64,000 nt of DNA. It comes from Candidatus Iainarchaeum sp. (GTDB taxonomy: Archaea > Iainarchaeota > Iainarchaeia > Iainarchaeales > JAZDDZ01). Positions 3,516 to 50,753 of the stretch are shown here, one piece after another. How positions within the stretch are numbered: the stretch's first letter is position 1; each line of letters starts with the position of its first letter. A model generated the notes under the pieces. It did no database searches, was not told the DNA's origin, and saw only the letters and a list, made by a program, of their open reading frames with translations. Location of the stretch: the NCBI GenBank assembly GCA_043809245.1, contig JAZDDZ010000007.1, positions 1 to 64,000 on the forward strand. The letters are read 5' to 3'. Both the position numbers and the translations under genes were made by a program.

Positions 3516-3577
3516 GATAGAGTGGCAGAATACACGCCATTAGAAAAGTTTTTAAATAAGAGAAGCATTATTACATT

Positions 3578-6173: not shown

Positions 6174-6503
6174 TTGGCGAATAATGCGGATTTTTCCGAC
6201 GAGATAGCGGCGCTCAAGAAAGCGGAAGAGGATGCCTCTAAAACACTGGAGAAAGCCCAAAAGGACAGGGAGAAAAGGGTTTCAGAGGCAAAGGCGAAAG
6301 GCCAGGAGATAGTGGAAGAGGGCAGGAAAAAGTCCACTGAAATGAAGCAGAAAATGCTTGAGGAAGCGAAAAAACAGCTTGAGGAACAGGCTGCGAAGAT
6401 AATTGAGGAAGCGGAAAAAGAGGCGTCAGCACTCAAAGGGAAAAAAATTTCCAGTGCAAAGGCAAAGGAATTGGCTGAACTGATTCTTGCAAGGGATGGG
6501 TGA
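6174..6503 (+). CDS. atpH: A1Ao ATP synthase subunit H (G-like stalk)
   Basis: K/E/A-rich coiled coil, first gene of the operon; SD AGGTGA precedes TTG 6174 (ORF is open from 6150). Confidence 0.8.
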   Translation: MANNADFSDEIAALKKAEEDASKTLEKAQKDREKRVSEAKAKGQEIVEEGRKKSTEMKQKMLEEAKKQLEEQAAKIIEEAEKEASALKGKKISSAKAKELAELILARDG

Positions 6504-6509
6504 GCAAAA

Positions 6510-34800: not shown

Positions 34801-37800
34801 CGGAGGGGCAGTGTCAAGAACAAATGAAGCCGTGTTTACCGCTGCGGCAGAGTTGCCAGCGTAATCCAAGTAAATTGCGTAAACAGTCCTGTTGCCGTCT
34901 GAAGTTGGGCAGCCGTAAGCTGTTGCCTGTGGCTTGATGTTGAAAGAATTGTATGTTTCGGAATAAATTGCGGGGTTAGTGTAAGTTATGCCGTTGCAGC
35001 TTAGCCTAACCCGGTTTGCGCCTGTGCTTGAAAGCGCAAATGTGGGAAGCGCGGTATTTACATAGCCTGTTGCGCCGGTGTAATTAACAGCAATCGAATT
35101 GCCTGTCGGGGGCACTGTGTCATAAGTGGTTGAATCGCTTGCGACATAGCCCCATGTGCCTACAGAGTCCTTGAATTGCACGTAAACTGTTTTTGAGCCG
35201 TTTGCAGTGGAGCAGCCGTTTGAGCCTGAGGCAATGTTAAAGGACGAGTATGTTGTGTTGTATGGAACCTCGGCTGCCCATGCGCTGTTGTCGCAGCTGA
35301 AGCGCATGTGAGTAAGCGTTGTTCCGCTTACATTTGTTGAAATGTTCATTTGCGGAGTTGCATTGTTTGTGTAGCCGAAATTATCGATTATTGTAATGGA
35401 GTTTCCACCGGTTATCGGCGTCCAGTTGAGGATGATTGAATCTGATGCAGCTTCGCCTATGTTGCCAAGCGTGTCCCTAAGCCTTACGAAAACATATTTT
35501 GTGCCCGCGGCGTAAGTGCAGCCGCCCAATGCAGAGTTTATAATATTGAAGTCGGAATATGCTGCGGAGAAGTTAACCCATGCCGCGTTCCATGTGCTTC
35601 CATTGCAGGAGAACTGCATTTGTGAAACCCCTATTCCCGTGCCGTCGTTTCCGGTTATTGAAAGCGCAGGGGTATAGTCTGATGTTGTTTCTGCGCCGCC
35701 TTCAATTGAAATCGTTGCAGTAGGACCAGTGGTGTCAACGTACACTGAATCGCTTCTTATTTCATTGCTGATGTTGTATGCCTTGTCCCTTAGTTGCGCG
35801 TAAAGCGTTACGTTGCCGTCAACGCTGTTAAGGCAGCCGTTAAAGCCATACCTTAAATTAATGTTTGGAACCATTGAAGAGGAATAGCTTGCCCAGGCGC
35901 CCCATGATGTGCCGTTGCAGCTGAACCTTGCCTCATGGACGCCTGAAGTTGCATCTGAAGCGCTTAAGGTGGCTGAAGGAGTGGTGTCACTGGTGTAACC
36001 GCTTGTTTTTGTTATGCTTAAGCTGTTTAGTGCTGGCTTGCTTCTGTCAAGGTAGAAGTAGCCGCCGTTCGCGTAAGTGCTCACAGGGGCAGAGGAATTG
36101 TTTGTGTCATCCTCGAATATTGCGTAAACCTGTTTTGCGCCGTCAGTGTTTGAACAGCCTGCGCCTGTCGCAATGTCAAAGGAACTGTAACTGCTTGAAT
36201 AAGGCGTGTTGCCTGAAAAGCTTGAGGGATTGCTTGAGCAGCTGAAGCGCATATAGCTTGCGCCGTTGCTGGAAATTGCAAGCGGCGGTGTTGTGCTGCT
36301 TGTATACCTTGGAGTTCCTGTAAAGCCAGTTACGGATATTGAATTGTTCACAGGCGGGCCTAAGTCAACAAGGATTAAATCCGAAGCGCTCGGGCCTACA
36401 TTTCCCACTTTATCCCTGAACCTTACGTAAATTCTCCTTAAGCCGTCAGACAGGCTGCAGCCGTAAGAGGTGGTGTAAATGTTGAAAGCCGAATAGCTTG
36501 TCGCATAAGGCACCCAGCCACTCCAGCTGCTTGCATTGCAGGAGAACTGCATTTCCGTAACGCCTGAAGCAGCATCAGAAGCTGAAAGGGACAGCAATGG
36601 GGTTGAATCGTTTGTTGACGCAGCGCCGTTTTCAATTATAATTGTTCCTGTCGGGGCAGCAGTATCATAGTATGTTGAATCGGAAACAACTGCACTTTCA
36701 TTTCCGGCAAGGTCAACGAGCTTTGCGTAAACATTTACTGAACCGTTTGCGCCGCTTAGGCAGCCATAGCCTGCCTGTGAAACGTCAAATGATGCAATTG
36801 AGCCCTGTGAGATTTTGTAGGAGAATGCCTGCCATGTGCTGCTGTTGTTGCAGTTGAATTTAATGTATGATGCATCCCCTGTTGCGCTTACAAATATTGC
36901 TGGCTTGCTGCTGTTGGTGTAGCCGCCTATATCCGATATTGTTATTGAGTTAAGCGTTGGCTGAATTGCGTCAATTGATGCTGTCTTTGACTTCAATGAT
37001 TCAGTGTTGCCTGCATTGTCAAGCGAGTAATAGTACACTGTGTTTATTCCCTCAAGGTTCAGCACAAAAGGCGATGAATAGAAAACCCATCCCCCTGAAT
37101 TTATTTTATAGTATGTTCTCTGGCACCCTGATGGGCCGTTTGCGTCAGAGCATGTTAAGGTAACAGTTATTGATGTCTGCCAGCCTGAGGGAATGTCGTC
37201 TGTTGTGGTTGGCGCGGTTTTGTCTAATCCCAAATAATATGCATAGTCATAAACCGAGTAGTTTGCCGCATTGTCCTTGTATCTGCATCTTATCGCAAAG
37301 TTCAAGTCGTTTGCGGGCGTAACCCATGCATAGCTTCCGTCTGTGTCCCCTGTTGCCAGTTCAGTCCATCCTGTTCCGTCATCGCTTAAAGTGTAGTCGA
37401 AATCATATGATGCGACATCGCTTGCGGTTGCAGTGCAGGTAAGGGTTACGGTTGCTCCTCTAACCCATGAGTTCTTTGCATAGCCGTCAATTCCAACTGA
37501 TGGAGTTGTTGTTGCGGAAGTATCGAATATGATGTCGTCAAACTGAACCTCGCTTTGGTTGTACGCCTTGTCCCTTACAACCGCGTAAACCCTTCTTCCT
37601 CCCTCGCCATTAGTGCAGCCATAGACAGGAGAGAGGATATTGAAGTCCGAAATTATTGACGAATAAGAGTAGGTTCTCCATGGGCCGCTTGAGCCGCAAC
37701 TCATGTTGAGGTCGTAAAGCCCTGAAACAAGGTCATAGGCACTTATTGAAATGGCTGGCGCGGAGTCAGCGGTTGTGTTGTTCATTGAGGAGTCAACCAA

Positions 37801-40800
37801 AACCGATGAAAGCGTTGGGTTTTCAGTGTCAAGCCACCACACGCCTGTGTCAGCGGAGCCGACAACAGCGTTTCCTGCGCGGTCCGTGATTCTGATGTAA
37901 ACTTTTCTCTGGCCGTCACGCGTAGTGCAGCCATACTGTGTGGAATTGGGCTTCACGTCAAAGTTGGAATAATATTTTGTGTATTGCCCTTTTGGGCTGA
38001 AGTCAACGCCATTGCAGCTGAAAGCCATGTCATGCAATCCCGCGATTAAGTCTTTTCCGTTCACAACCAATGGAGGCGCATCATCGTTCGTGTAGCCTAA
38101 TGTGCCGCTCCACTGCGCCACATCAAGCTCCACATTCACATCATATGGGTTTGTTGTGTCTATTACAAATGAATCGCCGTCATCGAAAAAGATAAGGCCG
38201 CCGAAATCAGTTTTATCTCCCTGCAAGGTAAGCACTGTGTCATTGCTTGAGTTGGCGAGAATCTGGTTGCCTGCCTTGTCCTTGAATTTAACGTAAACAG
38301 TCTTGTTTCCGTCAGTGTTGGAGCAGCCTCCCTGCGAATCGTCCAATAAGTTGAAGTCAAAGTACTGCGACTTGTATACAACCCATCCAGTGAAGTTGTT
38401 TGCATCGCAGCTGAAGGACATTTCATGCAATCCCGAGAGGGCATCTGAAGCGGTTGTGTTAAGCAGGGGCGTTGTATCGCTTGTATAGCCTGTTACATAG
38501 TAGGCAGCGGCATTGATTGCAACGCTTCCGGAAGGCACTGTCGCATCATATGTTGTTGAATCCGATGCGGTGTAAGCCCAGCTTCCTAATGAAGGGGAAT
38601 AGAACTGCGCGTAAATTGTTTTTGCGCCCTCTGATGCGCTGCAGCCCGCGCCGGAGGTAATGTTGAAACCGTTGTAGTCGCTTTGCATTACCGCTTCAGC
38701 GCCCCAGGTGCTGTTGTCGCAGCTGAAGCGGATTGCATTCACATCAAGTGATGCTCCCGCCTGTATTCTCATTTGCGGGTTTGCGTTGTTTGTGTAGCCT
38801 GAATTGTCTATAATGTCAATGTCTACTTCGCTTGGGCCGATTGGCAAGTCAAGCGTTGCAGTTGTGTAAACCGTGACCGTGTTGTTCAAATTGTCCCTGG
38901 CCTTGGCGTAAATTATTATTGCGCCGTCGTTGTTGGAGCAGCCTGCGCCGGAAAGGGCATTGAAGTCAATCAAGGCAGCCCTGTTTTCATCAACATAGTA
39001 ACTGTTATAGTCATACCAGGAGCTGTAAGAGGAATTGTCACAGCTTAGGGCGAAATCTTTTACTCCCGAGCCGTCATCGTATGCCGAGATTACAAGCAAT
39101 AAGTTTGCATCGGTTAGAACAGGCGCATTGCTTGCAATTGAAACGCTTGCATTCGGGGGATTGATGTCATAGTAGGTTGTGTCCGAAATTATTTCGCTTT
39201 CATTGAATGCCTTGTCCCTGGCTTTCGCATAAACCGTTACAAGCCCGCTCTCATATCCCGGGCAGCCGAGATTATAGTCGCCTATGTTGAAGTCATCTGT
39301 TGAAGCATTCAAAGTGGCTGAATAATTGAACCAGTTGCTCCAGTCCTTTCCATTGCAGGAGAACTTCATTGAATCCAAGCCGCTGCTGCCAGTGTCAGTT
39401 GCGGTTATGTCAAATTGCGGGGAAGTGTCATTTGTGTAGCCGCTGGAATCTGTTATTGTGAAAGAGGAAACTATCGGGATTGTGCGGTCCAAGTACAGGG
39501 AATTCGCGGGCGAAATCTGGACCGCTGATGCGCTGTTGCCTATGCTGTCGGAGTAAATCGCGTAAACAGTCCTGTTGCTGTCGGATGAAGAGCAGCCGTT
39601 TGCTATAAGGGTCACGTCAAATGCGCTGTAGGCAGAGGCATAGCTTGCATTGGATGAATAAGTCGCATTGTCGCAGGAGAACTTCATGTAATATGCAAGG
39701 GTTGAGGTTGTAGACATCGGGGGCGTGATGTTGTTTGTGTATCCGTTTCTTCCGCTGAAAGTTGAAATGTTCACTGAGTTGCCTGTTGGAGCGCCTGCGT
39801 CATCGTAAAAGATTGTGTCATAGGCGCTTGAGCCGTTGTTGTCTTCCGCGTCCTGGAACCTGGCGTAAACTGTTTTTGAGCCGTAGCCGCTGCTTGCCTC
39901 CGCATCGCAGCCCACTGCGCTGTTGTCAGCGCTTAAAATGCTGAAAGACTTTGTGCTGGAAACCGATTCCCATGCAGTCCACGCTGTTCCATTGCAGCTG
40001 AATGACATGTTTGCAACGCCTGAAGCGTCATCGGAATATGTGAGGGATAGGTCAAGCGTTGTGCTTGTCGTGCCAATGTCTCCGCTGTTAATCAGTATCG
40101 AGCCAGTTGGGCCTGTTGTGTCGGCAAAATTTGAAATAATGAGTTTTGCGGGTGAAGAAATTGTTTTGCTTTTTCCCTGGTCGTCAAAGATGTTTATGTC
40201 AATGTAGTATTCGCCTGTTGCAATTGCTGAAAGGTTCCAGTCATAGCCGCAGTCAGCCTGGTTTGAGAAGTTAACGTCAGAGCAGGGCTGCGGGAACGCG
40301 AAAAGTTTTTCCCTTAACAGCTCGCCTTTTGAAAGCGCGCGGTTGTAGAGCTTTATTTCGTCAATGCTTAACATTCCCGGGTAATTGGGCAGGGTGCCTG
40401 TGTTGGTCATCCTCATTCCGAAATAGGTTGTATTAGTGTAATTTGGATAAATGCAGGGCACGCTGGCAGGCAGTGTTGCGCTTGAATCAGCGTAACCGTT
40501 AACGTAAAGGCTGATTGCACTGTTTTCCTGAGAGCAGGTAACTGAAAGATGGTTCCAAACATTGTAAGTGAAATTGGATGTGGATGTGATTGTGGTCAAG
40601 TAATTTGGAGTGGACTCTACACTGCGACTGTATGAGACTGTTCCTCCACTGTTCCTTGTAAGCACACCCAACCAATCTGACAGCGCCCAGGTCTGCGCAG
40701 AGCCTGAATCCTTAGGGTATACCCACATTGAAAGCGTGAGCGCGTTGGTTAAAGTTGAAAAAGTGAAATCATTGGCGATTCTCAGCTTTTCAATTGTGTT

Positions 40801-43800
40801 TAAGTCAACTGCCCATTGCCCCATTTTTCCCGCAACCCAGTGGGAGCCCACATTGGTGTATGTAGAGCCGCTGCTTGCGAATATGAGCCCTAAATTAGTG
40901 CCGACTCCCCCTTTATCGTGGGCTGTGTACCCGCTGCCTTCGTCCAAGGGCCAGTAACCAATAAGGCTTGGGTTTGCAAGAGAATTCAGGTCAAAGTTCT
41001 GCACTAGGGAATTGGAGAACTGCCCTGGAGAAGAGGAATAGTAAATGCTTGCGTGGAGGTTTCCGCTGAAAACATTGAAGTCAGCGTCAGTCACATTGAA
41101 GTCTATGAGGAAATTGCTGTTGTATCTTGCGTTAATTGTTGTGTCCTGCAACAGGACATTGAAGTTTGCGTCGGGCGCAACAGGAGTTCCGATTACAGCG
41201 TGCATTGTATTGGTTGGCTCTGTTTTGCCTAAATTGTCAATGCTGTAAAACTGGATTGCATAATTTCCGTCAGCGCTGAATGCAATTGCCGAATTGTAGT
41301 CAGCCCAGGAACCGTATGACACTGCGTTTGAGGCATCAGAGTCAAGCCTGTATTTTGTGGAAGCGCAGGCTGAATTGTTTTGCGAATAGATTTCCTCGCC
41401 TCCAAGCAAGTATGATGGGGGCGTGGCAATGTCTTTTTTTACGCTTAAATTGTCAAAGGAAGCGGCAACGCTGCCTGAATAAACCTGTGAAAACAAGCCA
41501 AAGTAAGGCGCACTCGCGGATAAAGGCGCTGAATTAAGGGAAACATAGGAGCCTATTTGCGTCCAGTCAGTTCCGTTAAATGAGATAAGGTAAAGGTTAT
41601 AGCCGCCCCTCCGTATAATTCTCAGCCACGCAGGCAGGGTCGTGGAGGCATAGCTTGGCATGCTTCCCACATAACACCCGTCAGGATAGCGCCTTACTAC
41701 TTGGAAATTATCTCCTTCCCCTATAGCTTCCTCCCCACAGTATACGCTCCTACTTGCATACTTATACCTTCCAAAATAGTCTGCAGCTATACCGCTGGTG
41801 CCAACCGATAAATTGCCAACATATATGCCTGTATGCGTGTCATTGTTAACAGTATAGCTGTTCAGCTTTGCAGTCAAAGCCCAGTCACCTGAATTGCCTA
41901 TATTGAAAGCCAGAATCTCATAATCATTAGTGGAGTTAAACAACAGCCTTCCGCTTGTTTCCACAAGTATGTTTGCGTCACTGCCATTATTTGTTCTGAA
42001 ACCCCTTGCTGGAAGCGTTTTAAGGCTGTTGTCGTTGAAGTTGTCCCCTAAGTAAAAAATGTCAGGGTAATTGTTCGGCGGCGACCCAGCGCTTGGGTTT
42101 CCGTAAAAAAGGAAGTAATTGTAGTCAATTGTTCCCGCAGAAATCGTGTTTTGCAGCTTGAATTGGATTACAGTATTTGTTGTATTGCAGCCGATTACTT
42201 CCCTGCTTAACTCTGTTGTGCCGTTATAGGCAACCCTTAAGTCACTGCAGTTGCTTTTCATTTTTCCCGCGGCAATAAGCGCTGCAGTGTCAATTGCGTT
42301 GACGTCAAGGGTATACGTGTTGTTAAGCGTGGTTGCTGACGCGGAATTGTCAATTGTTATGATTTTCCTGTAAGCGTAATCCGAGTCAAGCCAGCCGCGC
42401 GGCGAAGAGCAGAAAAGGCTCGCGCTAAAGCCGCTTGGAATGAAACCGCTGTTTATGTCGCTTGAAGTAACAGGGCCAAGCGCGTTAACAAGGAATGAAA
42501 CCATGCCAGTGCTTGAGGTGTTAAGCAGTGCATCCCTGCACGCATAATAGCGGGTATAATTTCCGTCGGCAAGATTGCCTAAATCGCATGAGAATTGGCT
42601 GGCGCTTCGCGTGCAGGAATTGGGGAGAGAGGCAAATGAAAGGTTTGCTGTTCCCCAGCTGCAGGAAACACTCGCGGCATTAAAGTCAGTTATGTCAAGC
42701 ACAATGCCTGTTGAAGAATCATTGGTTGAATCAAGGTATGGAGCGGTTGAATCTCCGCCAATGTTGTTGATTGCAATAACTGGAGCAGTGTTATCCAATT
42801 CAAAGAATGCATCAGAGGAATCAACTGCGTTATTGTCCTGCGGGTCAAAGGCATTCAGGTCAATGAAGTAATTGCCGTCTGCCACGCCATTGATTGTTTT
42901 CCACAGGTAAACGCATTTTGTTGAATCAGAGAAATCGCGGTCAGCGCACCATGAAATCCTGCTTGCCTCAGCTGCGCTTAAAGCCCTTCTGATGAAGAAG
43001 GGCTCGTCAATCGTGCCGGCAAAGCCCTTGCCAATGTCTATTTCTTCGCTGTTGTTCATGTTTGCAGTGGAATTGTCTGTTCCAGTGCAGGCAAGTGCGC
43101 CGTCAACGTAAAGATAACAACTGTTAGTTGAAACATTCCTAACGCCTATGATGTGGTGCCAGTGGTTGTCGGCAATGCGTGAGCCATAGCATACACAGGA
43201 TAAGCCGTTCCAAAGATTGTTTCCGACAGAAAATGTGGCTAGTCCATAAGGAACGCTAATAGCCCAGCCTGCAATGGGCAAAGCATAATAAGTAGAGTAT
43301 TTGCTGATTAGGTCCCCTGACAAATCAGTTGTTTTGACCCACATTCCAACGCTGAAACTGTCAGCCAATTTAATGTCAAAGTCAGGGTCATCGCCTCTTG
43401 TGGCGTAAGAGTCAGGGCTGTCCGAAAAAGTTATTGCCTTGTCAAAAACCCCTGAAACCCAGCTTACGGAGCCTGAGAGCGCTAGATTATTTGCAGCCGT
43501 GGTGTTTGCGTCGCGCAGTGTTGTTCCACTGCCTTCACCGAACTTCCACCAGGACTGGTAAGTGGCGGGCACAGTAAAAGCATTGGCAAGATTTACATTG
43601 TCAGCAATTTGGTTCTGGAAAGCGCCAGCTGCACTGGAATAATAAATGTCTGCGTATAACACGCTGCTGTCTGAATCCAAAACATTGAAGTCAAGTAAAT
43701 AGTTTCCGTCATTCGGGTAAGAGATTTGCTCTCCGCCATTCGGAAGCGCGAGCACAACTGTTGGAGCTGCACCGCTGTTGTTTATGCGGAAGTTCTGGTC

Positions 43801-46800
43801 AGAGGAATCAACCGCGTTATTGTCCTGAGGGTCAAAAACGTTGATGTCAATGAAGTAATTGCCGTCAGGAAGAGCGGAGTAATTCCAATCGTAAGTGCAT
43901 CGCCTTGAAACCGAAAAATTGGAGCTGGCACACCTTCCCGGAACGGAAAGATTATAGTCGTTAAGTATTTGGTTCTCAAAAGCGCCGGGTGTTGAAGAAT
44001 AATAAATGTCGGCAAACAACTGGTTGCTGTCTGCATCAGATACATTGAAGTCAAGGGTTTTGTTTCCCTGCAGGAAATACGTCCATGTTTGGTTTCCGTT
44101 GGGGGAATTAACCAAAGCGGTTGGCGCAGCGCCTTGTACAGTGAATGAAACCGCGGCAGCGGTTGAAGCATTCAATGCATTATCCCTGCAAGAATAATAA
44201 TAAGTATAAGAGCCGCCAGTCAAGTTTGTGAAATCGCAGGTTACTTGGCTGCCGGAAATCGCGCCGCAGGCATTGGCCATGCTAGCATAGGCAACATTCG
44301 TTGAATCCCATTTGCAGGAAACACCATTTGAATTGAAATCCGAAATTGAAAGCAAAAGATTGGTGTCATTGTCAGAAACACTGTCAAGATAAGGCTCTTC
44401 GGTGTCCCCTGCCAAAGAAACAACCGAAAGTACAGGCGCTGAATTGTCAAGCGAGAAATACGCATCAGAGGAATCAACGCTGTTGTTGTCCTGAGGGTCA
44501 AAAACATTTATATCAAGGAAATAATTGCCGTCGGAAACAGCGATAATGTTCCAATCGTAAGTGCATCTCCTTGAAACCGAGAAATTTGAGCTGGCGCACC
44601 TTCCGACAACAGACAAATTCCAGTCATTCACAATCTGTGTGGTAAAAGCGCCAGCGGAAGAAGAATAATAAATGTCGGCAAACAACTGGTTGCTGTCCGC
44701 GTCTGAAATGTTAAAATCAAGCACCGCATTCTTATCTCTAACATAAGAATTCGTGTCACCGCCATTAGGGGAATTTACCCGAATTGTTGGCGCAGCGCCT
44801 TGTACAGTGAAGGAAATCGCTTCTGCGGTTGAAGCATTCAATGCGTTGTCACTACAGGAATAATAATAATCGTAAGTTCCTGCGGCAACACTTCCGAATG
44901 CGCAAGTTATTTGATTGCCATCAATGGCGGAACAATCATTCGCCATGCTCGCATAGGCGACATTCGTTGAATCCCATTTGCAGGAAACACCCGCAAGATT
45001 GAAATCCGAAACCGAAAGAAGGAGATTGGAGTCGTTGTCAGAAACACTGTCAAGATAAGGCGCCTCAATGTCGCCAGCCAAAGAAACAACGGAAAGAATT
45101 GGCGCATTATTGTCAACAGTGAAAAACGCATCGGATGAATCTGCTGTTGCGGCGTTTGATGGGTCAAACACGTTTATGTCAATGAAGTAATTGCCGTCGC
45201 CCAAAGAAGAAAGCATTGTCCAGCCGTAATTGCAGTCAGTGGAGTCAAGGAAATTGGTGTCAGCGCATTGCCCCAAAGCATTTAGGTTCAAGTCATCAAC
45301 TATCTGCGTGGTGAAAGCGCCTTGGCTGTCTGAATAATAAATGTCAGCGTAAAGCCAGTCGTTGTCAGCGTCCATTACATTGAAGTCAATCGCATAATTG
45401 CCGTCCTTTGCGTAAGAAATTGTTTCACCGCCATTGGGTGCGTTTACGTTTGCATCAGGCGCAGTGTTTGCAACGTTGACTGTGAAGGAAAGCGTGGTGA
45501 TTGCGGAGTTGTTGTCCATTGCGTCGCCGCAGACGTAAAAGCGGTTGTAATCGTTGTTCATCAGGTAGCCGAAATCGCAGGCGTAAAGATTGCTGTTCTT
45601 GGCGCATTCTGTTGGCGAAGCCATTTGGGAATCGGAACTCCACCAGCATTTCACTCCAGCAAGCTCAAAGTCGTTGACGTCAAGGATTGCGTTTGTGTCA
45701 AAGTCCTTGAGTGTGTCCTCCCAAGGCGCGGAAGCGTCATTGGCTAAGCTTGACACGGAAATTGTTGGCGCAAAATTGTGCACCAAAAAGTTGTAATCGC
45801 TTGAATCCGTGGCGGGCGTGTTCTCTCCGTCGGAGACATTCAAGTCAATGAAGAAATTGCCGTCAGGGACAGCGGAAAGATTCCAGTTATACCAGCATTT
45901 TGTTGAGGAAGCAAAGGAATTGTTAGTGCAGGAAATTTTGTACAACTGCATTATTTCATCCGCGGAAAGCGCGCGGCTGAATATGCGGAGGTCGTCTGCT
46001 TTTCCTGTTGAGTAGGCGCCGCCAGTGGGGTCATAGCCTAAATACAGTGCGCCGCTGGAATCGTTGACGTCGCCTGAAGCTGAAGCGGAATTGCATTCCC
46101 CGCCGTTAACGAAAATTTTCCTGTCAGAGCCGTCAAGAGTGCAGGAAACCATATACCATTTGTTTGCGTCAAAGGTTCTCGTGCAGGAAATTGAGTCGCC
46201 GCTGGAAGCGGTTGCAAGATAGCATGTGGCGGAAGTGGTTGTAAGGCTTAAGCCCTTGTCTTCAGCGCCTGAAACCCATTTCCTTAACATCATGCTAGGC
46301 GTAGCCCACATGGAAATCGTCGCACTGGTTCCGAGTGCAAGTGAAGTCGGGCCGCTTGCATACTTGTTTGTTGCTGCCTGCAAGCCCGGGCCGAATTTTC
46401 CTGAAACCCAGCTCATTCCTCCATAAGTTGTTCCATTGCCTCCATTGCCGCTAAGGTCATTCACAGTGCTGCCGTTGTTTTCATCAATTGGCCACCAGAG
46501 CAGAAGCGAGGCGTCGCTTAGGATTCCGAGGTTTGCGTCCAAAAGTTTTGTGCCATATGCTGCTGGAGACATTGAATAGTAAATTGATACATTTAAGTCA
46601 GTTGAATCTGCATCGCTTACGTTGAAGTCAATTGAGATGTTTCCGTCGCGGTTATAGCTGTAGCGCTCGTAGCCAAGGGGCGAGAAAAGTGTTGCGTAAG
46701 TCGGCTGGGTTGACAGAACTTGGAAGGAAATTGAAGCGGTTGCAGAGGTATTAAGGCCAAGGTCTTTGCAGGCATAATAGCGGTCGTAAGCGCCTGAGCT

Positions 46801-48993
46801 TAAGTTTCCGAACGAACAGGTTTTAAGGCCTGTTGAACCAGAGCAATCGTTTGCCATGCTCGCATAAGCCACATTGCTTGAATCCCATTTGCAGGAAACC
46901 CCATTGGCGTTCAAATCGGAAATTGAAAGGGCAAGGTTTGTGTTGGAATCAACTAGAGAATCAGTGTAAGGTGCAGTGCTGTCGCCGTCAAGGTTGTTAA
47001 TTGAAACTACTGGCGCATTGTTGTCAAGCTGGAATAAAGCGTTGGAGGAATCTGTTCCAATGTTCTGCATGCTGTCAAACAGGTTTATGTCAATGAAGTA
47101 ATTGCCGTCGCCTAAGCCCATTAGGTTCCAGTCGTAATAGCATTCTGTTGATGCGGCGAAGCTGGTGTCGCGGCAGCTTGTAAGGTAAAGTGCCTGTATC
47201 TCCGAGGAAGTTAGTGCGGTTTTTGTGAAAAAGGGGTCGTCTATTAAGCCGTTGAAGTGCCCTCCGCAAGTTCCAAGCGAACAAGTTATACAAGCAGGGT
47301 AAGCTCCGATTGCCAATGGTTGAGTGTTATTCATGTTTGCATTGCTGTTATCCGTTCCCTGCCCTTCTAATGCTCCGTCAACGTAAATATAGCATTTGTC
47401 GTCTGCAACGCTTCTTACACCTATTACATTGTGCCATTGGTTGTCGTTTAAATCCGTTGTGCCTGTTGCTTGGCAAAACTTTGTTCCGTCACCCCAATCG
47501 CCAATGTAAACGTTTGCCTTTGCATTTGGGGCCACATTTATTCGGTAACCAATTACTGTGCAAATTGTTTTCGCAATTATTGCTTCCCCGCCCCCTCCAA
47601 GTGTTCGCACTTGTTCTATCGGGTGCTTTATCCACGCTCCCATTGAAAAACTTGTCGTTAAAAGCACGTTAAAGTCTACATCGTCGTTTCTGTATAGGTA
47701 TTGGTTTTGGTCTGGATTAAAGGATATTGCTGAACCATATCTCCCGTTTGCAGTCCAAGTTGGCGCATAGTTTCCTGTGCCGAATGAAAGATTGTTGGCG
47801 CCCGATGTGCTGTCAAGAGTTGTGGTGCCTGAGCCCTCGGAAAAATGCCACAGGCCTTTCAGGAGACCTGAGCCGTAAACTGAAAGGTTTAAGTCGTCTG
47901 CAATTTGCTTTGTGAAGGCGCCTGCAGTTGAAGAATAATATATGTCTGCGTAAATGGAATTGCTGTCTGAATCCGTTACATTGAAGTCGATTGAAATGTT
48001 TTTGTCGCTGTTGTAAGAGAATGACTGGCCTCCATTGGGGTAATTGACCAAAGCGGTTGGCGCGTTGCCTGAAACAGTGAAGTCAACTGAAGCGGTTGAA
48101 GAGGCGTTTGCAACCGCGTCCTGGCAGGCATAGTAAATTGTGTAAGAGCCTTTGAGCCCAGTGGCCTTGCACGATGACTTTCCTCCGGAAATTGCACTGC
48201 AGGAATTCGGAAGCGAAGCGTATGCAACGTTTGTTGTTCCCCACTTGCATGCCGCCGGGCTTCCCACGCCTGCATTTGAGTCGGAAACATTCAGTAGCAC
48301 GTTTGTGCTGCCGTTGTCAATCGTGTCCTCATATGGGCCTGTTGTGTCGCCTTCCACGCTGTTCAAGGAAACCGTTGGCGCGATTAAATCTGTTGTGTAA
48401 TTGCCTGTAATTGGATTGTTTGTTGCTGCAAGCGTGTTGTCGAAAAGGAAAGCAAACCAATTGTGCGTTGCGTTGTCTGATTCTGAAGTGAAGGAACAGG
48501 AGGGGTTTGCGGCGTAACTGCTTTGGCTGACTGAGCAATAGGTGCCTGCGCCGCAGCCGGAAATTGTTGCGCTGTTTGTCTGGCAGACGAATAGCTTCAA
48601 GGGATTGCTTTCGGAATCCGTCGCGCTTGTGCAGATGTAAACAGTTGAGCCGCCCTTTATTGTTGTCGCGGCTGTGCCGCAGCCCGCAACTTTTCCATCG
48701 GAAGCTGAAGTGAATGTCGGAGCGTAAGTGCCGAAGTAAATTATGTCTTCAACTGTCTTGTCGCTTACTTCCGCTTCAACTGCAGGGAATAAAAGGGTTT
48801 CCTGCGCGGCGGAGAGATTGTCCTTGAAAACCGTTGAGTCAAGCTCTTCCTGCGTGAAGGCATTGCGCCAGTCAAGGAAAGAGAAGGCATCGGAGCCTTT
48901 TGAAAAATCACCGAATGCGTTAACAAGAAGGGAAAGGCATACAATGCAGAGAATTAACGCTAAAGCTAACCTGATTCTGCCGCTTTCATTCAT
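28861..48993 (-). CDS. Giant secreted surface/adhesin protein, 6710 aa (Ig-like repeats, 4 LamG-like domains, DUF2341-like domain, Cys-rich repeats, CARDB)
   Basis: Uninterrupted 20.1-kb ORF; signal peptide; W.F.EGSG...IDD/DE LamG patterns; about 21 FSC..W...GC..DG..VY...D..GN repeats; three D..N.(V/I).ESNE.NN-type CARDB motifs. Confidence 0.92.
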   Translation of the reverse strand: MNESGRIRLALALILCIVCLSLLVNAFGDFSKGSDAFSFLDWRNAFTQEELDSTVFKDNLSAAQETLLFPAVEAEVSDKTVEDIIYFGTYAPTFTSASDGKVAGCGTAATTIKGGSTVYICTSATDSESNPLKLFVCQTNSATISGCGAGTYCSVSQSSYAANPSCSFTSESDNATHNWFAFLFDNTLAATNNPITGNYTTDLIAPTVSLNSVEGDTTGPYEDTIDNGSTNVLLNVSDSNAGVGSPAACKWGTTNVAYASLPNSCSAISGGKSSCKATGLKGSYTIYYACQDAVANASSTASVDFTVSGNAPTALVNYPNGGQSFSYNSDKNISIDFNVTDSDSNSIYADIYYSSTAGAFTKQIADDLNLSVYGSGLLKGLWHFSEGSGTTTLDSTSGANNLSFGTGNYAPTWTANGRYGSAISFNPDQNQYLYRNDDVDFNVLLTTSFSMGAWIKHPIEQVRTLGGGGEAIIAKTICTVIGYRINVAPNAKANVYIGDWGDGTKFCQATGTTDLNDNQWHNVIGVRSVADDKCYIYVDGALEGQGTDNSNANMNNTQPLAIGAYPACITCSLGTCGGHFNGLIDDPFFTKTALTSSEIQALYLTSCRDTSFAASTECYYDWNLMGLGDGNYFIDINLFDSMQNIGTDSSNALFQLDNNAPVVSINNLDGDSTAPYTDSLVDSNTNLALSISDLNANGVSCKWDSSNVAYASMANDCSGSTGLKTCSFGNLSSGAYDRYYACKDLGLNTSATASISFQVLSTQPTYATLFSPLGYERYSYNRDGNISIDFNVSDADSTDLNVSIYYSMSPAAYGTKLLDANLGILSDASLLLWWPIDENNGSTVNDLSGNGGNGTTYGGMSWVSGKFGPGLQAATNKYASGPTSLALGTSATISMWATPSMMLRKWVSGAEDKGLSLTTTSATCYLATASSGDSISCTRTFDANKWYMVSCTLDGSDRKIFVNGGECNSASASGDVNDSSGALYLGYDPTGGAYSTGKADDLRIFSRALSADEIMQLYKISCTNNSFASSTKCWYNWNLSAVPDGNFFIDLNVSDGENTPATDSSDYNFLVHNFAPTISVSSLANDASAPWEDTLKDFDTNAILDVNDFELAGVKCWWSSDSQMASPTECAKNSNLYACDFGYLMNNDYNRFYVCGDAMDNNSAITTLSFTVNVANTAPDANVNAPNGGETISYAKDGNYAIDFNVMDADNDWLYADIYYSDSQGAFTTQIVDDLNLNALGQCADTNFLDSTDCNYGWTMLSSLGDGNYFIDINVFDPSNAATADSSDAFFTVDNNAPILSVVSLAGDIEAPYLDSVSDNDSNLLLSVSDFNLAGVSCKWDSTNVAYASMANDCSAIDGNQITCAFGSVAAGTYDYYYSCSDNALNASTAEAISFTVQGAAPTIRVNSPNGGDTNSYVRDKNAVLDFNISDADSNQLFADIYYSSSAGAFTTQIVNDWNLSVVGRCASSNFSVSRRCTYDWNIIAVSDGNYFLDINVFDPQDNNSVDSSDAYFSLDNSAPVLSVVSLAGDTEEPYLDSVSDNDTNLLLSISDFNSNGVSCKWDSTNVAYASMANACGAISGSQVTCDFTNLTGGSYTYYYSCRDNALNASTAAAVSFTVQGAAPTALVNSPNGNQTWTYFLQGNKTLDFNVSDADSNQLFADIYYSSTPGAFENQILNDYNLSVPGRCASSNFSVSRRCTYDWNYSALPDGNYFIDINVFDPQDNNAVDSSDQNFRINNSGAAPTVVLALPNGGEQISYPNDGNYLLDFNVLDSDSSVLYADIYYSSAAGAFQNQIADNVNLANAFTVPATYQSWWKFGEGSGTTLRDANTTAANNLALSGSVSWVSGVFDKAITFSDSPDSYATRGDDPDFDIKLADSFSVGMWVKTTDLSGDLISKYSTYYALPIAGWAISVPYGLATFSVGNNLWNGLSCVCYGSRIADNHWHHIIGVRNVSTNSCYLYVDGALACTGTDNSTANMNNSEEIDIGKGFAGTIDEPFFIRRALSAAEASRISWCADRDFSDSTKCVYLWKTINGVADGNYFIDLNAFDPQDNNAVDSSDAFFELDNTAPVIAINNIGGDSTAPYLDSTNDSSTGIVLDITDFNAASVSCSWGTANLSFASLPNSCTRSASQFSCDLGNLADGNYTRYYACRDALLNTSSTGMVSFLVNALGPVTSSDINSGFIPSGFSASLFCSSPRGWLDSDYAYRKIITIDNSASATTLNNTYTLDVNAIDTAALIAAGKMKSNCSDLRVAYNGTTELSREVIGCNTTNTVIQFKLQNTISAGTIDYNYFLFYGNPSAGSPPNNYPDIFYLGDNFNDNSLKTLPARGFRTNNGSDANILVETSGRLLFNSTNDYEILAFNIGNSGDWALTAKLNSYTVNNDTHTGIYVGNLSVGTSGIAADYFGRYKYASRSVYCGEEAIGEGDNFQVVRRYPDGCYVGSMPSYASTTLPAWLRIIRRGGYNLYLISFNGTDWTQIGSYVSLNSAPLSASAPYFGLFSQVYSGSVAASFDNLSVKKDIATPPSYLLGGEEIYSQNNSACASTKYRLDSDASNAVSYGSWADYNSAIAFSADGNYAIQFYSIDNLGKTEPTNTMHAVIGTPVAPDANFNVLLQDTTINARYNSNFLIDFNVTDADFNVFSGNLHASIYYSSSPGQFSNSLVQNFDLNSLANPSLIGYWPLDEGSGYTAHDKGGVGTNLGLIFASSGSTYTNVGSHWVAGKMGQWAVDLNTIEKLRIANDFTFSTLTNALTLSMWVYPKDSGSAQTWALSDWLGVLTRNSGGTVSYSRSVESTPNYLTTITSTSNFTYNVWNHLSVTCSQENSAISLYVNGYADSSATLPASVPCIYPNYTNTTYFGMRMTNTGTLPNYPGMLSIDEIKLYNRALSKGELLREKLFAFPQPCSDVNFSNQADCGYDWNLSAIATGEYYIDINIFDDQGKSKTISSPAKLIISNFADTTGPTGSILINSGDIGTTSTTLDLSLTYSDDASGVANMSFSCNGTAWTAWESVSSTKSFSILSADNSAVGCDAEASSGYGSKTVYARFQDAEDNNGSSAYDTIFYDDAGAPTGNSVNISTFSGRNGYTNNITPPMSTTSTLAYYMKFSCDNATYSSNASYASAYSAFDVTLIANGCSSSDSNRTVYAIYSDSIGNSASAVQISPANSLYLDRTIPIVSSFTITDSSGYTNDTSPQFDITATDTGSSGLDSMKFSCNGKDWSNWFNYSATLNASTDDFNIGDYNLGCPGYESGLVTVYAKARDKAFNESEIISDTTYYDINPPNASVSIASNAPVLTDANLLLVISAYDDGSGVKDFALSCDNSSYSSWYDYNSYYVDENRAALIDFNALSGAGCSNNDGAIIIYAKARDNLNNTVTVYTTATLDLPIGPSEVDIDIIDNSGYTNNANPQMRIQAGASLDVNAIRFSCDNSTWGAEAVMQSDYNGFNITSGAGCSASEGAKTIYAQFYSPSLGSWAYTASDSTTYDATVPSGSVAINAAAYYVTGYTSDTTPLLNTTASDALSGLHEMSFSCDANNFTGWVVYKSQYFDFNLLDDSQGGCSNTDGNKTVYVKFKDKAGNQILANSSNDTVLTLQGDKTDFGGLIFFDDGDSFVIDTTNPYDVNVELDVAQWSGTLGYTNDDAPPLVVNGKDLIAGLHDMAFSCNGVDFSPKGQYTKYYSNFDVKPNSTQYGCTTRDGQRKVYIRITDRAGNAVVGSADTGVWWLDTENPTLSSVLVDSSMNNTTADSAPAISISAYDLVSGLYDLNMSCGSSGPWRTYSYSSIISDFNILSPVYGCTNGEGGRRVYAVVRDKAYNQSEVQFDDIIFDTSATTTPSVGIDGYAKNSWVRGATVTLTCTATASDVASYDFDYTLSDDGTGWTELATGDTDGSYAWVTPANDLNFAIRCRYKDNAANYSVYDYAYYLGLDKTAPTTTDDIPSGWQTSITVTLTCSDANGPSGCQRTYYKINSGGWVFYSSPFVLNLEGINTVYYYSLDNAGNTESLKSKTASIDAIQPTLNSITISDIGGYTNSSKPAIFVSATGDASYIKFNCNNSSTWQAFSYKISQGSIASFDVSQAGYGCLSGANGSVNVYAKLVDLAGNESAVVSDSTYYDTAAPTGTIIIENGAASTNDSTPLLSLSASDAASGVTEMQFSCNASSWSGWVPYATSYSAFNIYTTSYGCSLSDGLRRIYVRFRDKVGNVGPSASDLILVDLGPPVNNSISVTGFTGTPRYTSSTTPPLAISSNGASYMRFSCSSNPSSFSGNTPYSSSYSSFDIATGAGCSNTDGAKQVYAIFEDDTNNSSAPVSTYANGGYFYLDRSKPALNSLSITKTSGYTSDTTPSATLSASDATSGVHEARFSCNGTSWGAWASYSSSMVPNINLRYGFNGCLNSVDGNVTLYAQLRDKAYNISNEIRSDSVYVDTTGPTATISIEGGAETTSDYTPALSITGNDGTGIGVSQMQFSCNGSTWNAAWVNFSAAYSDFNIINSALGGCTYAAGTKYVFVRLRDTLGNIGEAASDSIILNWTPITGGNSITIIDNFGYTNNATPQMNISTNVSGTTLTHMRFSCDNSAWAAEVPYNTTYSSFNIASGSNGCSTANGSKTVYVQFKDSVGTWGYVASDSTTYDTVPPTGNSIAVNYTGATGYVNTALPTFALSSTGANRVRLSCNGITYTNPAIYSETYNSFNIKPQATAYGCPTSDGNRTVYAIYLDYAGNSAAAVNTASFVLDTAPPTSLALSTTYSGLDGYINTATPALALSATDGLSGLSGMQFSCNASDWTGWEAFASTKSNFNLESGSYGCGSTDGSTTVYARARDRAYNVSASAARSLIVDTQAPQNPSIFIERWTGESGYTFDDAPPLVMAATDATSGVYEMQYSCDNSDWTYPWIVYSYRYSTFDARPAAQQYGCTTGQGQKIIYVRFRDRAYNVSGEANTGYWILDQNAPLNLSISIEVFTGLGGYTNDSTPEFLLTADDTISGLSKARFSCNGFGFTDWFAFDGSDTYNSSTNDFDVKSGFNGCAAEDGNKTIYVEVMDKAGVFSVVSNSGIGADSFYVDTVVPSVSIDAPGENQFVSGNVLLYNTISDSGSGISSAWLTINSAAGPEGTTAGYPFDVNLSSAQSWDADWNSDSPVAEDLYALSVYAVDRAGNTSTAQRSFAVSRAAPTIQFLVPNPNNRYYSGSIDYNVYFQHFLLDDANVQVKNNSDGNSVISTQSASGLAATATTSKYLGTTANLSAYSDGTIFWVEAQAQDTAANHSSATTYFIVDNSNPTGSIAVLDTNGYTRSTNPDLNLSATDSTSSVESMRFSCDNSNWTGWAAFSSRYSGLSLIDSTAGCTSSDGSKTVYVQFRDSAGNISSSYSDTTTLDRAAPSGTIQIEGGSQTTNNDTPTLTLSAADNGGIGLKDMRFSCDSYTWAQYVNYATTYSDFNIFDTTIGGCIAGQGFREVYVQFRDSLDNLSHFFFDTIYVDMNIDSAAELEDCPDFIESENVSLAWAGASDSNSLAYFKIFISPNGQAWQELHQTSTAGETTYDFNFLAVDLNGVCGDGKCNPGENCPNDSLNCPIGTACTSGCRPQTGTTTNYSCGDGICSPGEYCPTDTLNGCAAGFFCRSGCQPDQNTIINDPTNPCGNGTCSTGEYCIYDNSYCYDAYGSDWVCKGGAGVDGCVQTTTVNYVCGDGTCDIGENCITDNSSCEVGNACINGCVPTNDTSALSGGKSFNAFQGSLDGFMYYRVETYDSVGNKANSTTKRCTIDKESPFQVPYTNGRAIVRSTSYGDYNLFIPSTGMASGADTNISIDYNSSPPTFQRGRLYAAFNFDAPEGTLTFLSDKPAKLTLTYSEGELSCAPTCSTADEQKLKIYRWDVDSNDWIAMQSTVDTVNNKITADMNHFSPWGYGEDTNAPTLASATISDSTCNQAQGCTSDSTPTITLVASADASDMNISCSASGPWLNQAYTSSVTNFDIASGSYGCGSTDGAATVYVKVSDDSGNWSSALSDSTYYDSTAPTLSITFPSDGASQSSSTVEIVYTGSDSGAGIKNYWVKVDSSAWINNSTNTSYSFDLQELGEHAYSVIATDNLDQNSSTESVTITVTSGGGPTGGEVCGNGSCTTSETRANCPADCWVCGDSFCDSPYESSANCAGDCPAQSCSDGTAYNACSAAKPLFCSNGSLVNDCSDCGCPNSGDTCNTDGSCTSVQADLTATLTSSGIAQNNSKVSFAAAVYNLGSTSATSFRVSLREGSPSGREIASRTVNSLAGSDGTSLLFEFTYDANDAAMASWQGKTISFYEVVDPDNSVAESNEANNNASTTVYFAGPELCGNLFDDNLNGLVDEGCIPNLFFKRIDVGKPVFVAGDLVRVDFNVLISSEDFDSNNFYVSFFENTLASQGIAVTFIGSLKKDKDVIMLFYYEEPVAQVITINTAGAVKQPAATALFQSEGTASTFYVFVDSTEVVTESNEQDNIMEVDIGSLITDLSFESSSVPATVFQGQRIDVNAVIANNSQADSGAFAVSVLLDKQTVASGNVPSLAPGAKANVHFSVNSGSISGAHDINILIDPSNLIAESDETNNNKFHLVFVEAGTELIYSYAKFLQQEQIVAGFWKPLADSSAYAFSVQGNSLAVSREISETQYNPDYSFSSNYLNSSLSTNAPYTLNISKNAVSFGSHDFSIIDKNMSAAYSQINGTSVSWWLDPVFLKRMHYERINNLSMIWWQQFLGGGA
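43790..45140 (-). repeat. Tandem intragenic duplication, 666-bp (222-aa) period
   Basis: Shared anchors offset by exactly 666 bp: TTCCAATCGTAAGTGCATC (43883/44549), GGTTGAAGCATTCAATGC (44161/44827), GTCAGAAACACTGTCAAGATAAGGC (44371/45037). Confidence 0.9.
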
Positions 48994-49136: not shown

Positions 49137-50753
49137 TCAGCTGCTTGGAGTGAATTCGTAAATTAATGCGTTGCCTGAATTGAACCGTTCAACAAGGAAA
49201 GGGCATTGCTGCAGGGGGATTGAAACTGTTTCTCCGCCTAGCACCATTGCCTTTGGCTGCAGCAAAAAATTGGCGCCATAATCTTCTAAAAGCTTTTTCT
49301 TTGAATCGCATGAAGCGAAAAAAAGCTTTACGAATGCCTCGCTTAATTCAGGCGTGCACTGGAAGCGCGTTGGGGAAGTGCATAACGCTTTTCTGCCTGT
49401 GTAAATGGCCACTGGCTTTGCCAGAGCCGGCGGCAGGATAACAAAAACACTTTCCTTAGAAGTGTTCGAGGAAATCCATTCAAGCAGCGGAAGGCTTTGC
49501 CCGTCAATGGATTTGTAAAAGCTTGAGTCAAAGGAAAACGGGAGGAAAAACAGCAAAAAAATTGTGGCTGCAAAAAAAGCCGCGGGGAAAAATTTTTCCG
49601 GAGCGCCTTTCGCATCAGCGGAAATTTTTTTGAACAAAAGGCAAAAGCCCGCGCCGGAAAACGCAAGGCAGAAAAGCAGAAAGAAATTCAGCGCGCGCTC
49701 AAATGGAACCATGAGATTGAAGCCCAATGCAAACGGGAAGAAAAGGAAGAAAGCGAGCGAAAGGAAAACCGGGAGGAAAAATTTTTCATTTCCGGTTTTT
49801 TCTGAAAAAATTTTCTTCAGCAGGAAAATGAATGGAATTGCCACAACTGCAAGCGACAGGAGCAGCAGCGCGGGGTTGAATGGCTGCAGGGAAAAATTTT
49901 CAAAACTTGCGGGCGCGGACAAAAGGAAATTTTCAATGACCGCCGCGGGACCCCAGATGAATATCATGGGAAAGGAAGCCAAAAGTTTTTCCACGCCAAA
50001 GCCGCCGGAAAAAGAATAGTAAATGCTGAACAGGACCGTGGCAATTTCAATTGAAAGCAGGCCGGCGAAAAAGGCGGTTAACTTTTTTCTCAGCGTGGAA
50101 CGGGTGAAAACAAAAAACAGGAAAAATGAAAGCGCTGCGAAAATAAATGCGGGGGGATAGGCTGCCGCGGAAAAAAGCATGAGAATCAGAAAAATGGAAA
50201 GGTATTTTTTTGAGCTGAATGATTTTTCCATGAAAAAAAGCAGGGGAAAAAAAAGCGCCAAGCCAAGGGAAGATGGAACCATTAGCTGCATGCCGAGAAG
50301 CCATACGCTGGAGGGAAGGAACAGCGAGAAAATTGCCGCGGAGAATGCCGCGTTTTTTTCTGGAAAAAATTTTCGGAACAAAACAAACGCGGAAAGCGAG
50401 AGAATGAACAGAAGCAGTGCGGGAAGGAAAAAAATCAGCTGTTCTGCGGGAATTCCTGAAAAAATTGAAATGAATGAAATGAGTGAAGTGAAGCCGTTCT
50501 CCAGGCCCGGCTGTTCCGGGAGGATTGCGGAAAGGCTTTCAGGAATGTACGGGTCTTTGCCTGAAAGCACGCCTGAACTGATCGTGCCTTGCGCTGCGGC
50601 GATTGAATCGTATTCGTCTCCGTGAAGCGGGAACAAGTAGCCGAGCCTTGGAAGCGCTGCAATGAAAACAGATGCCAGCAGAAGCGCAAGCAAAATTAAT
50701 TTTGGGTTTAATGCCTTTTGCAAGCCAAGCATATGAAAGTGAAAGTGCTGCAT
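49137..50753 (-). CDS. Multi-pass membrane protein, probable GT-C/STT3-like glycosyltransferase
   Basis: TM1 followed by PLHGDEY acidic loop motif; many TMs; C-terminal LEWISSNT...TGR domain typical of archaeal GT-C proteins. Confidence 0.6.
   Translation of the reverse strand: MQHFHFHMLGLQKALNPKLILLALLLASVFIAALPRLGYLFPLHGDEYDSIAAAQGTISSGVLSGKDPYIPESLSAILPEQPGLENGFTSLISFISIFSGIPAEQLIFFLPALLLFILSLSAFVLFRKFFPEKNAAFSAAIFSLFLPSSVWLLGMQLMVPSSLGLALFFPLLFFMEKSFSSKKYLSIFLILMLFSAAAYPPAFIFAALSFFLFFVFTRSTLRKKLTAFFAGLLSIEIATVLFSIYYSFSGGFGVEKLLASFPMIFIWGPAAVIENFLLSAPASFENFSLQPFNPALLLLSLAVVAIPFIFLLKKIFSEKTGNEKFFLPVFLSLAFFLFFPFALGFNLMVPFERALNFFLLFCLAFSGAGFCLLFKKISADAKGAPEKFFPAAFFAATIFLLFFLPFSFDSSFYKSIDGQSLPLLEWISSNTSKESVFVILPPALAKPVAIYTGRKALCTSPTRFQCTPELSEAFVKLFFASCDSKKKLLEDYGANFLLQPKAMVLGGETVSIPLQQCPFLVERFNSGNALIYEFTPSS

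Follow-up and report, generated by a model that had tools for sequence, protein, structure and literature searches.

LamG-like domains share one loop of a repeated Ig-like scaffold in a predicted giant surface protein of Candidatus Iainarchaeum

We analyzed a 64,000-nt stretch of DNA (the window), which corresponds to positions 1-64,000 of contig JAZDDZ010000007.1 from Candidatus Iainarchaeum sp. (GCA_043809245.1), a genome of 1.48 Mb that is 91.8% complete and is referred to below as G000; G153 and G152 are two congeneric relatives from a different family. The window carries a giant open reading frame (ORF), the product of which has a signal-peptide-like N-terminus, a region of immunoglobulin (Ig)-like modules of types A and B with LamG inserts, and then a long tract of Ig-like repeats. 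By eye, the N-terminus resembles a Sec signal (two arginines, a hydrophobic stretch and NAF/G), and the protein is predicted from its sequence to be a secreted surface protein of a DPANN-type (Diapherotrites-like) archaeon. Pfam searches with residues 1-3000 identified Laminin_G_3 (E 4.5e-59, four stretches), Big_3_3 (E 2.1e-17) and Laminin_G_2 (E 5.1e-10), while residues 3001-6710 matched CARDB, Big_13 and Big_7.

An earlier note on this DNA had described seven copies of a scaffold, our module B, three of them empty and four carrying a LamG-like domain at exactly the same point. Indeed, both halves of the scaffold motif occur seven times each and in matching order within the single ORF, the N-half motif DFN[VI].D.D at residues 336, 789, 1203, 1426, 1648, 1768 and 2631, and the DGNYFID-like C-half motif at residues 629, 1044, 1266, 1488, 1710, 2039 and 2926. 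The halves of copies 3, 4 and 5 are joined by 5 residues, and those of copies 1, 2, 6 and 7 lie 236, 199, 213 and 234 residues apart. A profile of 121 positions, built from the three whole copies and searched over the whole genome, covers these copies end to end; in all four filled copies the N-half matches as far as profile positions 63-66 and the C-half from positions 61-66, and since the half-matches to one profile meet at 61-66, the break is the same in each of them (Table 1). The four inserts belong to Laminin_G_3 (PF13385; 199.4 bits against a cut-off of 27.6, with four matches above the cut-off in the gene); their lower bounds coincide with those first proposed, and their upper bounds lie about 20 bases further. 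The scaffold is a self-standing Ig-like domain of about 120 amino acids (aa) for which no Pfam or NCBIfam family was found, the best Pfam match (E 0.051) being below the cut-off. Elsewhere in the genome the profile matched twice on contig C43 and once on C46, in two other large frames, and two of these three matches span nearly the whole profile. An A domain (Ig-like, about 100 aa) precedes every scaffold except copy 6, with B6 directly abutting B5; the A domains may be Big_3_3 (PF13750), for which the whole protein gives E 2.1e-17 with no single stretch passing alone, and one A domain searched alone yielded just E 0.11 to Big_13. The inserts had been described as far more divergent than the scaffold, which holds for paralogues within the protein (local alignments; 26-44% identity between LamG inserts, 36-69% between N-halves and 37-76% between C-halves), but not consistently for orthologues, where the picture is mixed, as detailed below.

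Table 1. Coordinates of the giant ORF and its modules in the window
Feature	Residues or length	Window positions	Strand	Basis or remark
Giant ORF, open over 20 kb	6710 aa	28861..48993	minus	Carries all seven scaffold copies
A1, Big_3_3-like Ig domain before B1		48067..48375	minus	67% identical to G152 A1
Scaffold copy 1 (B1), N-half	310-370	47884..48066	minus	Profile positions 2-66
B1 insert, LamG / ConA-like	236 aa	47176..47883	minus	Pfam and gap between halves
B1 C-half	607-661	47011..47175	minus	Profile positions 64-121
Scaffold copy 2 (B2), N-half	763-822	46528..46707	minus	Profile match
B2 insert, LamG	199 aa	45931..46527	minus	Pfam and gap between halves
B2 C-half	1022-1076	45766..45930	minus	Profile match
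A3, Ig domain with CWW...MASP signature before B3		45472..45765	minus	56% identical to G153 A3
Scaffold copy 3 (B3), uninterrupted	1177-1298	45100..45465	minus	Profile match
Scaffold copy 4 (B4), uninterrupted	1400-1520	44434..44796	minus	Profile match; modelled
Scaffold copy 5 (B5), uninterrupted	1622-1742	43768..44130	minus	Profile match
Scaffold copy 6 (B6), N-half	1742-1802	43588..43770	minus	Profile match
B6 insert, LamG	213 aa	42949..43587	minus	Pfam and model
B6 C-half	2016-2071	42781..42948	minus	Profile match
Second, different split Ig-like domain	2174-2601	41191..42474	minus	Two high-scoring segment pairs
Scaffold copy 7 (B7), N-half	2605-2669	40987..41181	minus	Profile match
B7 insert, LamG	234 aa	40285..40986	minus	Pfam and gap between halves
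B7 C-half	2904-2958	40120..40284	minus	Profile match

The nested arrangement is also apparent in predicted structures. The AlphaFold2 model of the empty B4, obtained with an alignment of 32 uninterrupted scaffolds, is a beta-sandwich with a predicted local distance difference test score (pLDDT) of 93.9 and a predicted template modelling score (pTM) of 0.86, with strands at residues 4-9, 23-31, 39-45, 53-60, 76-83, 90-99, 105-109 and 114-116. The break point falls after NL (residues 60-61) and before Cys67, inside the long loop at 61-75, which is flanked by the nearly invariant Cys67 and Cys78, a pair that may form a disulfide. The model of the filled B6 (pLDDT 78.7, pTM 0.75; alignment of 11 sequences) retains the strand order of the empty one around the insert, with strands 4-9, 24-31, 39-45 and 53-60 before it and 284-290, 299-308, 314-318 and 323-325 after it. 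The two ends of the insert have to connect to a single loop. In the model, the B6 insert (model residues 62-292) is a concanavalin A (ConA)-like jelly roll, which superimposes on solved ConA-like lectin-type domains (Z 22.0, root-mean-square deviation (rmsd) 2.4, 198 aligned residues) and on the fourth domain of the GH43 arabinanase AbnA, the structure of which includes a bound arabino-sugar (Z 21.8, rmsd 2.1, 183 aligned). Foldseek comparison of the scaffold with PDB returned generic Ig-like neighbours only, with one match at E <= 0.001 (8cka_B, an S-layer protein, TMq 0.57).

To place the scaffold in a wider family, we compared its profile with 1.84 billion proteins, which yielded 584 representatives at E <= 1e-3, 247 at E <= 1e-10 and 29 at E <= 1e-30; the small number of members that have a name are listed as Candidatus Diapherotrites archaeon. 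Within the order, a query composed of A3 and B3 matched 69 of 196 genomes at E <= 1e-10, G000 included. Occupancy was scored with separate N-half and C-half profiles in 151 proteins, comprising the best 150 of the 584 (P0001 among them) and P0002 from G153, and a scaffold was counted as filled if the gap between its halves exceeded 60 residues. By this measure, 278 scaffolds have gaps of up to 25 residues, two have gaps of 26-60 and 26 are filled, and 17 N-halves have no following C-half, many of them at contig ends. A LamG-like match is present in 18 of the 26 filled scaffolds, and other payloads are of different kinds: a socket of P0002 holds DUF2341 (PF10102, E 3e-22, at residues 50-127 of a 305-aa insert), the insert of P0126 (residues 85-451) contains FG-GAP repeats (E 1.6e-28, four stretches, the best at 113-177), and P0045 has two inserts of propeller-like YDGSTWTNLGDKG-type repeats (residues 419-693 and ~801-1002). 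The inserts in P0007, P0010, P0034 and P0088 have no family, and some of these pairings are partial half-matches and possibly false. The entry point varies, lying between the two cysteines (profile position ~74) in P0117, P0102 and P0028, and after C.YDWN (~85) in P0099. Since unrelated domains occupy the same loop region, insertion apparently happened several times. Nor is LamG tied to the scaffold: 53 of 73 LamG-like matches are found outside filled scaffolds (two of these are truncated nested copies), several of them arranged in tandem and separated by linkers that could not accommodate a scaffold. In a tree of LamG domains built with FastTree, nested and free copies are separated by 12 changes, compared with a mean of 17.3 and a minimum of 13 after shuffling, with the two truncated nested copies mislabelled as free and the tree too weak to distinguish a single origin from multiple ones. 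In P0102, residues 974-1536 form a 563-aa insert that apparently consists of LamG, a DUF2341-like domain and LamG, in which LamG may itself be split.

The nearest relatives of the giant protein allow its sockets to be compared between genomes, with all comparisons being between species or families and none between strains. A near-length search returned a single large homologue, P0002 (5944 aa, contig C40 of G153), of which P0017 (contig C97 of the same genome) is the N-terminal continuation with a 21-residue overlap; a shorter-length search returned 12 proteins, among which P0017 ranks first with 40% identity. Outside G000, the top match among the order's 196 genomes, again from G153, has 53% identity, and none of these other genomes shares the genus or species of G000. 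In G152, the gene is in three pieces on contigs C51, C66 and C72. With scaffolds of G153 denoted a and those of G152 denoted c, the order of units is A1-B1[LamG]-A2-B2[LamG]-A3-B3[ ]-A4-B4[ ]-A5-B5[ ]-B6[LamG]-A7-(second split domain)-B7[LamG] in G000, X-a1[LamG]-A-a2[LamG]-A3-a3[DUF2341]-A-a4[LamG]-A7-(second split domain)-a5[LamG] in G153, and A1-c1[ ]-A2-c2[LamG]-A3... / ...c3[LamG]-A-c4[DUF2341]-A-c5[LamG]... / ...(second split domain)-c6[LamG] in G152. The A1 domains of G000 and G152 are reciprocal best matches and mark an orthologous socket 1, which holds LamG in G000 and is an uninterrupted scaffold in G152, where the cysteine pair is lost too. Similarly, the A3 domains of G000 and G153 mark socket 3, every other A domain being at most 40% identical to A3 of G000; this socket is empty in G000 and contains DUF2341 in G153, followed by a region of ~170 residues with no Pfam match that looks ConA-like by eye. 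Occupancy is therefore not conserved, as the content differs after the orthologous A1 and A3.

The second split domain of Table 1 repeats this theme with a different scaffold. Its N-part (residues 2174-2197) and C-part (2541-2601) enclose an insert of ~343 aa and match, with E 1.7e-4 and 1.1e-8, the beginning and the end of a whole copy located at residues 3926-4010; the insert, which has no Pfam match, appears by eye to be DUF2341-like plus ConA-like. In G153 (P0002 residues ~1400-1500) and G152 (L025 on C72), this insert contains an extra Cys-rich stretch of ~100 aa, by eye a further level of nesting, which is absent from the protein in the window.

Whether scaffold and insert travel together depends on the unit. 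In unit 2, the inserts of B2 and a2 are 60% identical (N-halves 47%, C-halves 45%), those of B2 and c2 54% (50% and 35%), and those of a2 and c2 82% (71% and 80%). In unit 7, the B7 insert is 36% identical to that of a5 and 42% to that of c6, with N-halves at 58-61% and C-halves at 50-60%, and the a5 and c6 inserts are 53% identical (82% and 68%). The DUF2341 inserts of a3 and c4 are 79% identical, with both halves at 64%, and the inserts of the LamG-1 unit (a1 and c3) 53%, with C-halves at 91%. In two of the four comparable G153-G152 units, conservation of the insert equals or exceeds that of its scaffold. On a tree of 18 scaffolds, the groupings (B2,(a2,c2)) and (B7,(a5,c6)) are supported at 99/95 and 100/100, and the inserts group in the same way. 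The DUF2341-bearing a3, however, groups with the LamG-bearing scaffolds as (a3,(a1,c3)) with support of 98/94 and not with c4, so that a3 and c4 fall into separate groups, yet their inserts are orthologous. Within G153, the scaffolds of a1 (LamG) and a3 (DUF2341) are 81% identical in the N-half and 67% in the C-half, and the A domains that follow them 65%. These relationships are suggestive of partly decoupled histories of scaffold and insert, and go no further than suggestive because the approximately unbiased (AU) test does not reject a tree with an a3+c4 clade (p 0.178). The earlier note would have been contradicted by identical occupancy and co-evolution of insert and scaffold in orthologues, a pattern which we found for units 2 and 7 but not for sockets 1 and 3.

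At the DNA level, the C-halves of a1 and c3 form an island of 89% nucleotide identity (91% in aa), with the same codon at 41 of 50 conserved residues. The adjoining insert drops to 62% (52% in aa, 39 of 67 codons the same) and the adjoining A domain to 59% (50% in aa, 31 of 50 codons), a pattern which looks like a recombination mosaic bordered by the socket on one side and by the domain boundary on the other. Within the gene of G000 itself, A4-B4 and A5-B5 repeat with a 666-bp period and are 79% identical over 257-300 nt, the highest value between units; scaffold DNA identities range from 60 to 79%, a 68-nt tract, the best short one between units, reaches 90%, and exact repeats extend to no more than 38 nt, the longest being common to B4 and B5.

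We also examined the genome for machinery and sources of exchange. No reverse transcriptase (RVT_1, E <= 0.01) was found in the 91.8%-complete G000, in a search that gave matches in control genomes, and a diversity-generating retroelement target was rejected because the genome yielded no reverse transcriptase. Among the eight neighbouring genes scanned with Pfam there is no recombinase family. G000 has eight LamG matches, four in the giant gene and the others on C22, C47 (two) and C44; a silent cassette store was rejected, as the four matches outside the gene sit on contigs without a scaffold match. At C44:20014-20448, a frame of 261 aa that is interrupted by a TAA stop matches Laminin_G_3 (E 2.4e-13) and may be a broken LamG gene. 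The earlier note had proposed comparing codon usage of inserts and scaffolds, and the two agree: G+C content at third codon positions (GC3) is 0.501 in the former and 0.512 in the latter, with correlations of relative synonymous codon usage of 0.83-0.86, and a foreign origin of the inserts was rejected on these grounds. Public reads are limited to a single run (X1) that covers a share of 0.08 of the stretch in contigs at a depth of ~2 and is uninformative on variants; of six short contig pieces matched to the window, three showed no difference at all, and none revealed a joint.

Outside the A/B region, residues ~2960-6710 (window 28861-40119) include ~2000 aa of Ig-like repeats of about 100 aa, which share the pattern SGYTN...FSC...W...GC...DG...VY...D.AGN and are followed by several Cys-rich CGDG.C..GE.C repeats and by CARDB domains near the C-terminus. 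Downstream, a 902-aa ORF on the minus strand (window 26186-28894) shares its first 34 nt with the end of the giant ORF; it contains CARDB and CarboxypepD_reg domains and may encode a partner surface protein. Upstream, also on the minus strand, lies a gene for a 538-aa protein without a Pfam family (window 49137-50753). This upstream gene is homologous in G000, G152 and G153 (34-36% identity, with the last 120 residues compared), and the neighbourhood is therefore conserved. According to Pfam, the eight neighbouring genes include sugar-modifying enzymes, a radical-SAM protein, glycolytic enzymes and a CARDB protein, and two of them have no match.

We consider it likely that the protein presents a split-domain stalk, which holds lectin-type heads and has been remodelled over evolutionary time. 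Throughout its N-terminal third, Ig-like domains of types A and B alternate, and B is the split domain, a seven- to eight-stranded sandwich that can open for a complete domain in the loop between strand 4 and the putative disulfide-bearing strand 5. The LamG / ConA-like domain present in four of the seven B copies would jut sideways from the stalk as a binding head, probably with a glycan as its ligand, to judge from the fold. Remodelling probably involved duplication of A-B units (for example B4/B5), gene conversion between similar scaffold halves, and changes at the loop in which a payload was precisely gained, lost or replaced. Since each payload is bordered on both sides by sequence with homology to all other scaffolds, ordinary homologous recombination with a copy that is empty or differently filled would excise or swap the head exactly at the loop, a putative route that fits the mosaics. 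As a result of the remodelling, the heads that sit on the conserved frame differ from one related archaeon to another. A role in attachment to a glycan of a host or substrate is suggested by the fold, the predicted export signal and papers making this prediction for giant LamG / ConA-like proteins of other DPANN archaea, and the host-range variation put forward in the earlier note may be envisaged by analogy with the literature on DPANN lectin-like proteins.

Several observations weigh against this scheme, and some of them would be expected if LamG had been inserted once long ago, if filled and empty scaffolds represented old lineages, and if only whole units were duplicated or lost. Units 2 and 7 are cases of plain co-inheritance of scaffold and insert in three genomes. 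On a FastTree tree of 310 scaffolds (308 labelled, 110 columns), which is weak and may overcount changes, filled and empty states require 15 changes, compared with a shuffled mean of 28.1 and a minimum of 25; the filled scaffolds are thus partly clustered, so that simple descent of filled units accounts for some of the pattern. The low DNA identity between units (at most 79% over 257-300 nt) and the a3+c4 clade left standing by the AU test (p 0.178) point the same way. Static descent from a single insertion is nevertheless unlikely, in our opinion, since one loop region holds LamG, DUF2341, an FG-GAP propeller and other unrelated payloads, the closest scaffold on the tree is an empty one for 13 of 29 filled scaffolds, occupancy differs at sockets in an orthologous A-domain context, and a1 and a3 of G153 are mutually closest scaffolds with unrelated inserts. 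The remodelled stalk must also be reconciled with the condition of the relatives' genes, which are split over 2-3 contigs with the unit order of G152 partly inferred, and with the low pLDDT (55-60) of linker residues 61-90 in the B6 model. An assembly artefact, in which the order, number or emptiness of units would result from chimeric assembly of a metagenome bin, might be suspected for a repetitive gene the relatives of which are broken over several contigs; the 38-nt exact repeat shared by B4 and B5 means that empty A-B units may have been miscounted by one. As a general explanation it is hardly credible, given that the empty scaffolds possess a loop of their own, 5 residues long, and have 278 uninterrupted homologues elsewhere, the frame is open over 20 kb, the units are just 60-79% identical in DNA, and three short contigs of run X1 match the window without a difference.

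At the other extreme, scaffold halves could serve as homology arms for active cassette switching, with heads swapped within populations in the short term and host specificity changing with them, in a manner resembling pilin or surface-antigen variation. The sharp G153-G152 mosaic (C-half 89% in nucleotides with 41/50 codons, as opposed to 39/67 in the insert and 31/50 in the A domain) and the variation in occupancy between genomes would agree with such a system. We regard it as very improbable, however, as exact repeats do not exceed 38 nt and the scaffolds are 60-79% identical in DNA, the search of the 91.8%-complete genome found no reverse transcriptase and the scan of eight neighbouring genes no recombinase family, the four other genomic LamG matches lack adjoining scaffold halves, GC3 is equal in inserts and scaffolds, and the differences seen are all between families or species. 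It is doubtful, too, that gene conversion using the conserved halves as homology arms plugs in, removes and swaps heads on population time scales; if it did, genome-reduced symbiotic archaea would gain a cheap, enzyme-independent means of changing the host surface that they recognise. The exchangeable cassettes of the earlier note thus find partial support on an evolutionary time scale, with the differing occupancy at sockets 1 and 3 and the partial decoupling of scaffold and insert, but none as ongoing or programmed exchange.

DPANN archaea live attached to other cells, and the mechanism by which they recognise a host is largely obscure. If split domains carry binding heads as in the remodelled stalk, interrupted scaffolds provide a simple rule for locating candidate heads in huge and otherwise featureless archaeal surface proteins, and the differing occupancy of orthologous sockets makes swappable heads on a constant frame a testable idea. 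In nested domains generally, the usual inserts have adjacent N- and C-termini, as in jelly rolls and propellers. The payloads seen here (LamG, FG-GAP propeller) are of this usual kind, whereas the reuse of one loop region for unrelated payloads, and the presence of both states within a single protein, set this case apart. Split domains are reportedly also the subject of PMC10865825 and of Graham et al. 2024 (Proteins 92:933), the latter being cited elsewhere for a patescibacterium.

Large secreted proteins of other ultrasmall symbiotic archaea, like the one described here, have one or more LamG / ConA-like domains: host attachment is predicted for large, organism-specific proteins of this type in nanohaloarchaea (excerpts of PMC7443923) and in Mia14 (excerpts of PMC5498576), and in those excerpts neither nesting in a repeated Ig-like scaffold nor a comparison of occupancy is described. 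The closest parallel is found in bacterial RTX adhesins, the Ig-like split domains of which, according to excerpts of PMC12077191, project ligand-binding domains, with inserts that have adjacent termini, bud outward and are recognisable in models. As in AhLap of Aeromonas hydrophila, FrhA of Vibrio cholerae and MpIBP, an Ig-like sandwich in a fibrillar megaprotein is interrupted here by a complete domain, the payload is a lectin-like or carbohydrate-binding module, a vWA domain, a propeller or the like, and interrupted domains stand among uninterrupted extender Ig domains. Among the papers returned by a literature search on split-domain adhesins and archaea, no title or abstract opening describes an archaeal case. 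The protein in the window is archaeal and, where RTX adhesins rely on type I secretion, has an N-terminus that resembles a Sec-type signal, and Pfam scans of all 6710 aa revealed no RTX repeat family; it is therefore not an RTX adhesin, and the design alone is common to both. The details of the design differ as well: in the AhLap crystal construct, as described in the excerpted part of PMC12077191, the chain exits after the first strand, and here after the fourth. Overall, the protein is an archaeal variant of the known split-domain design, built on an uncatalogued scaffold family, which means that the design of bacterial RTX adhesins is also used in archaea, and it differs from those adhesins in that the same scaffold occurs seven times per protein, both filled and empty, with an occupancy that differs between related genomes.

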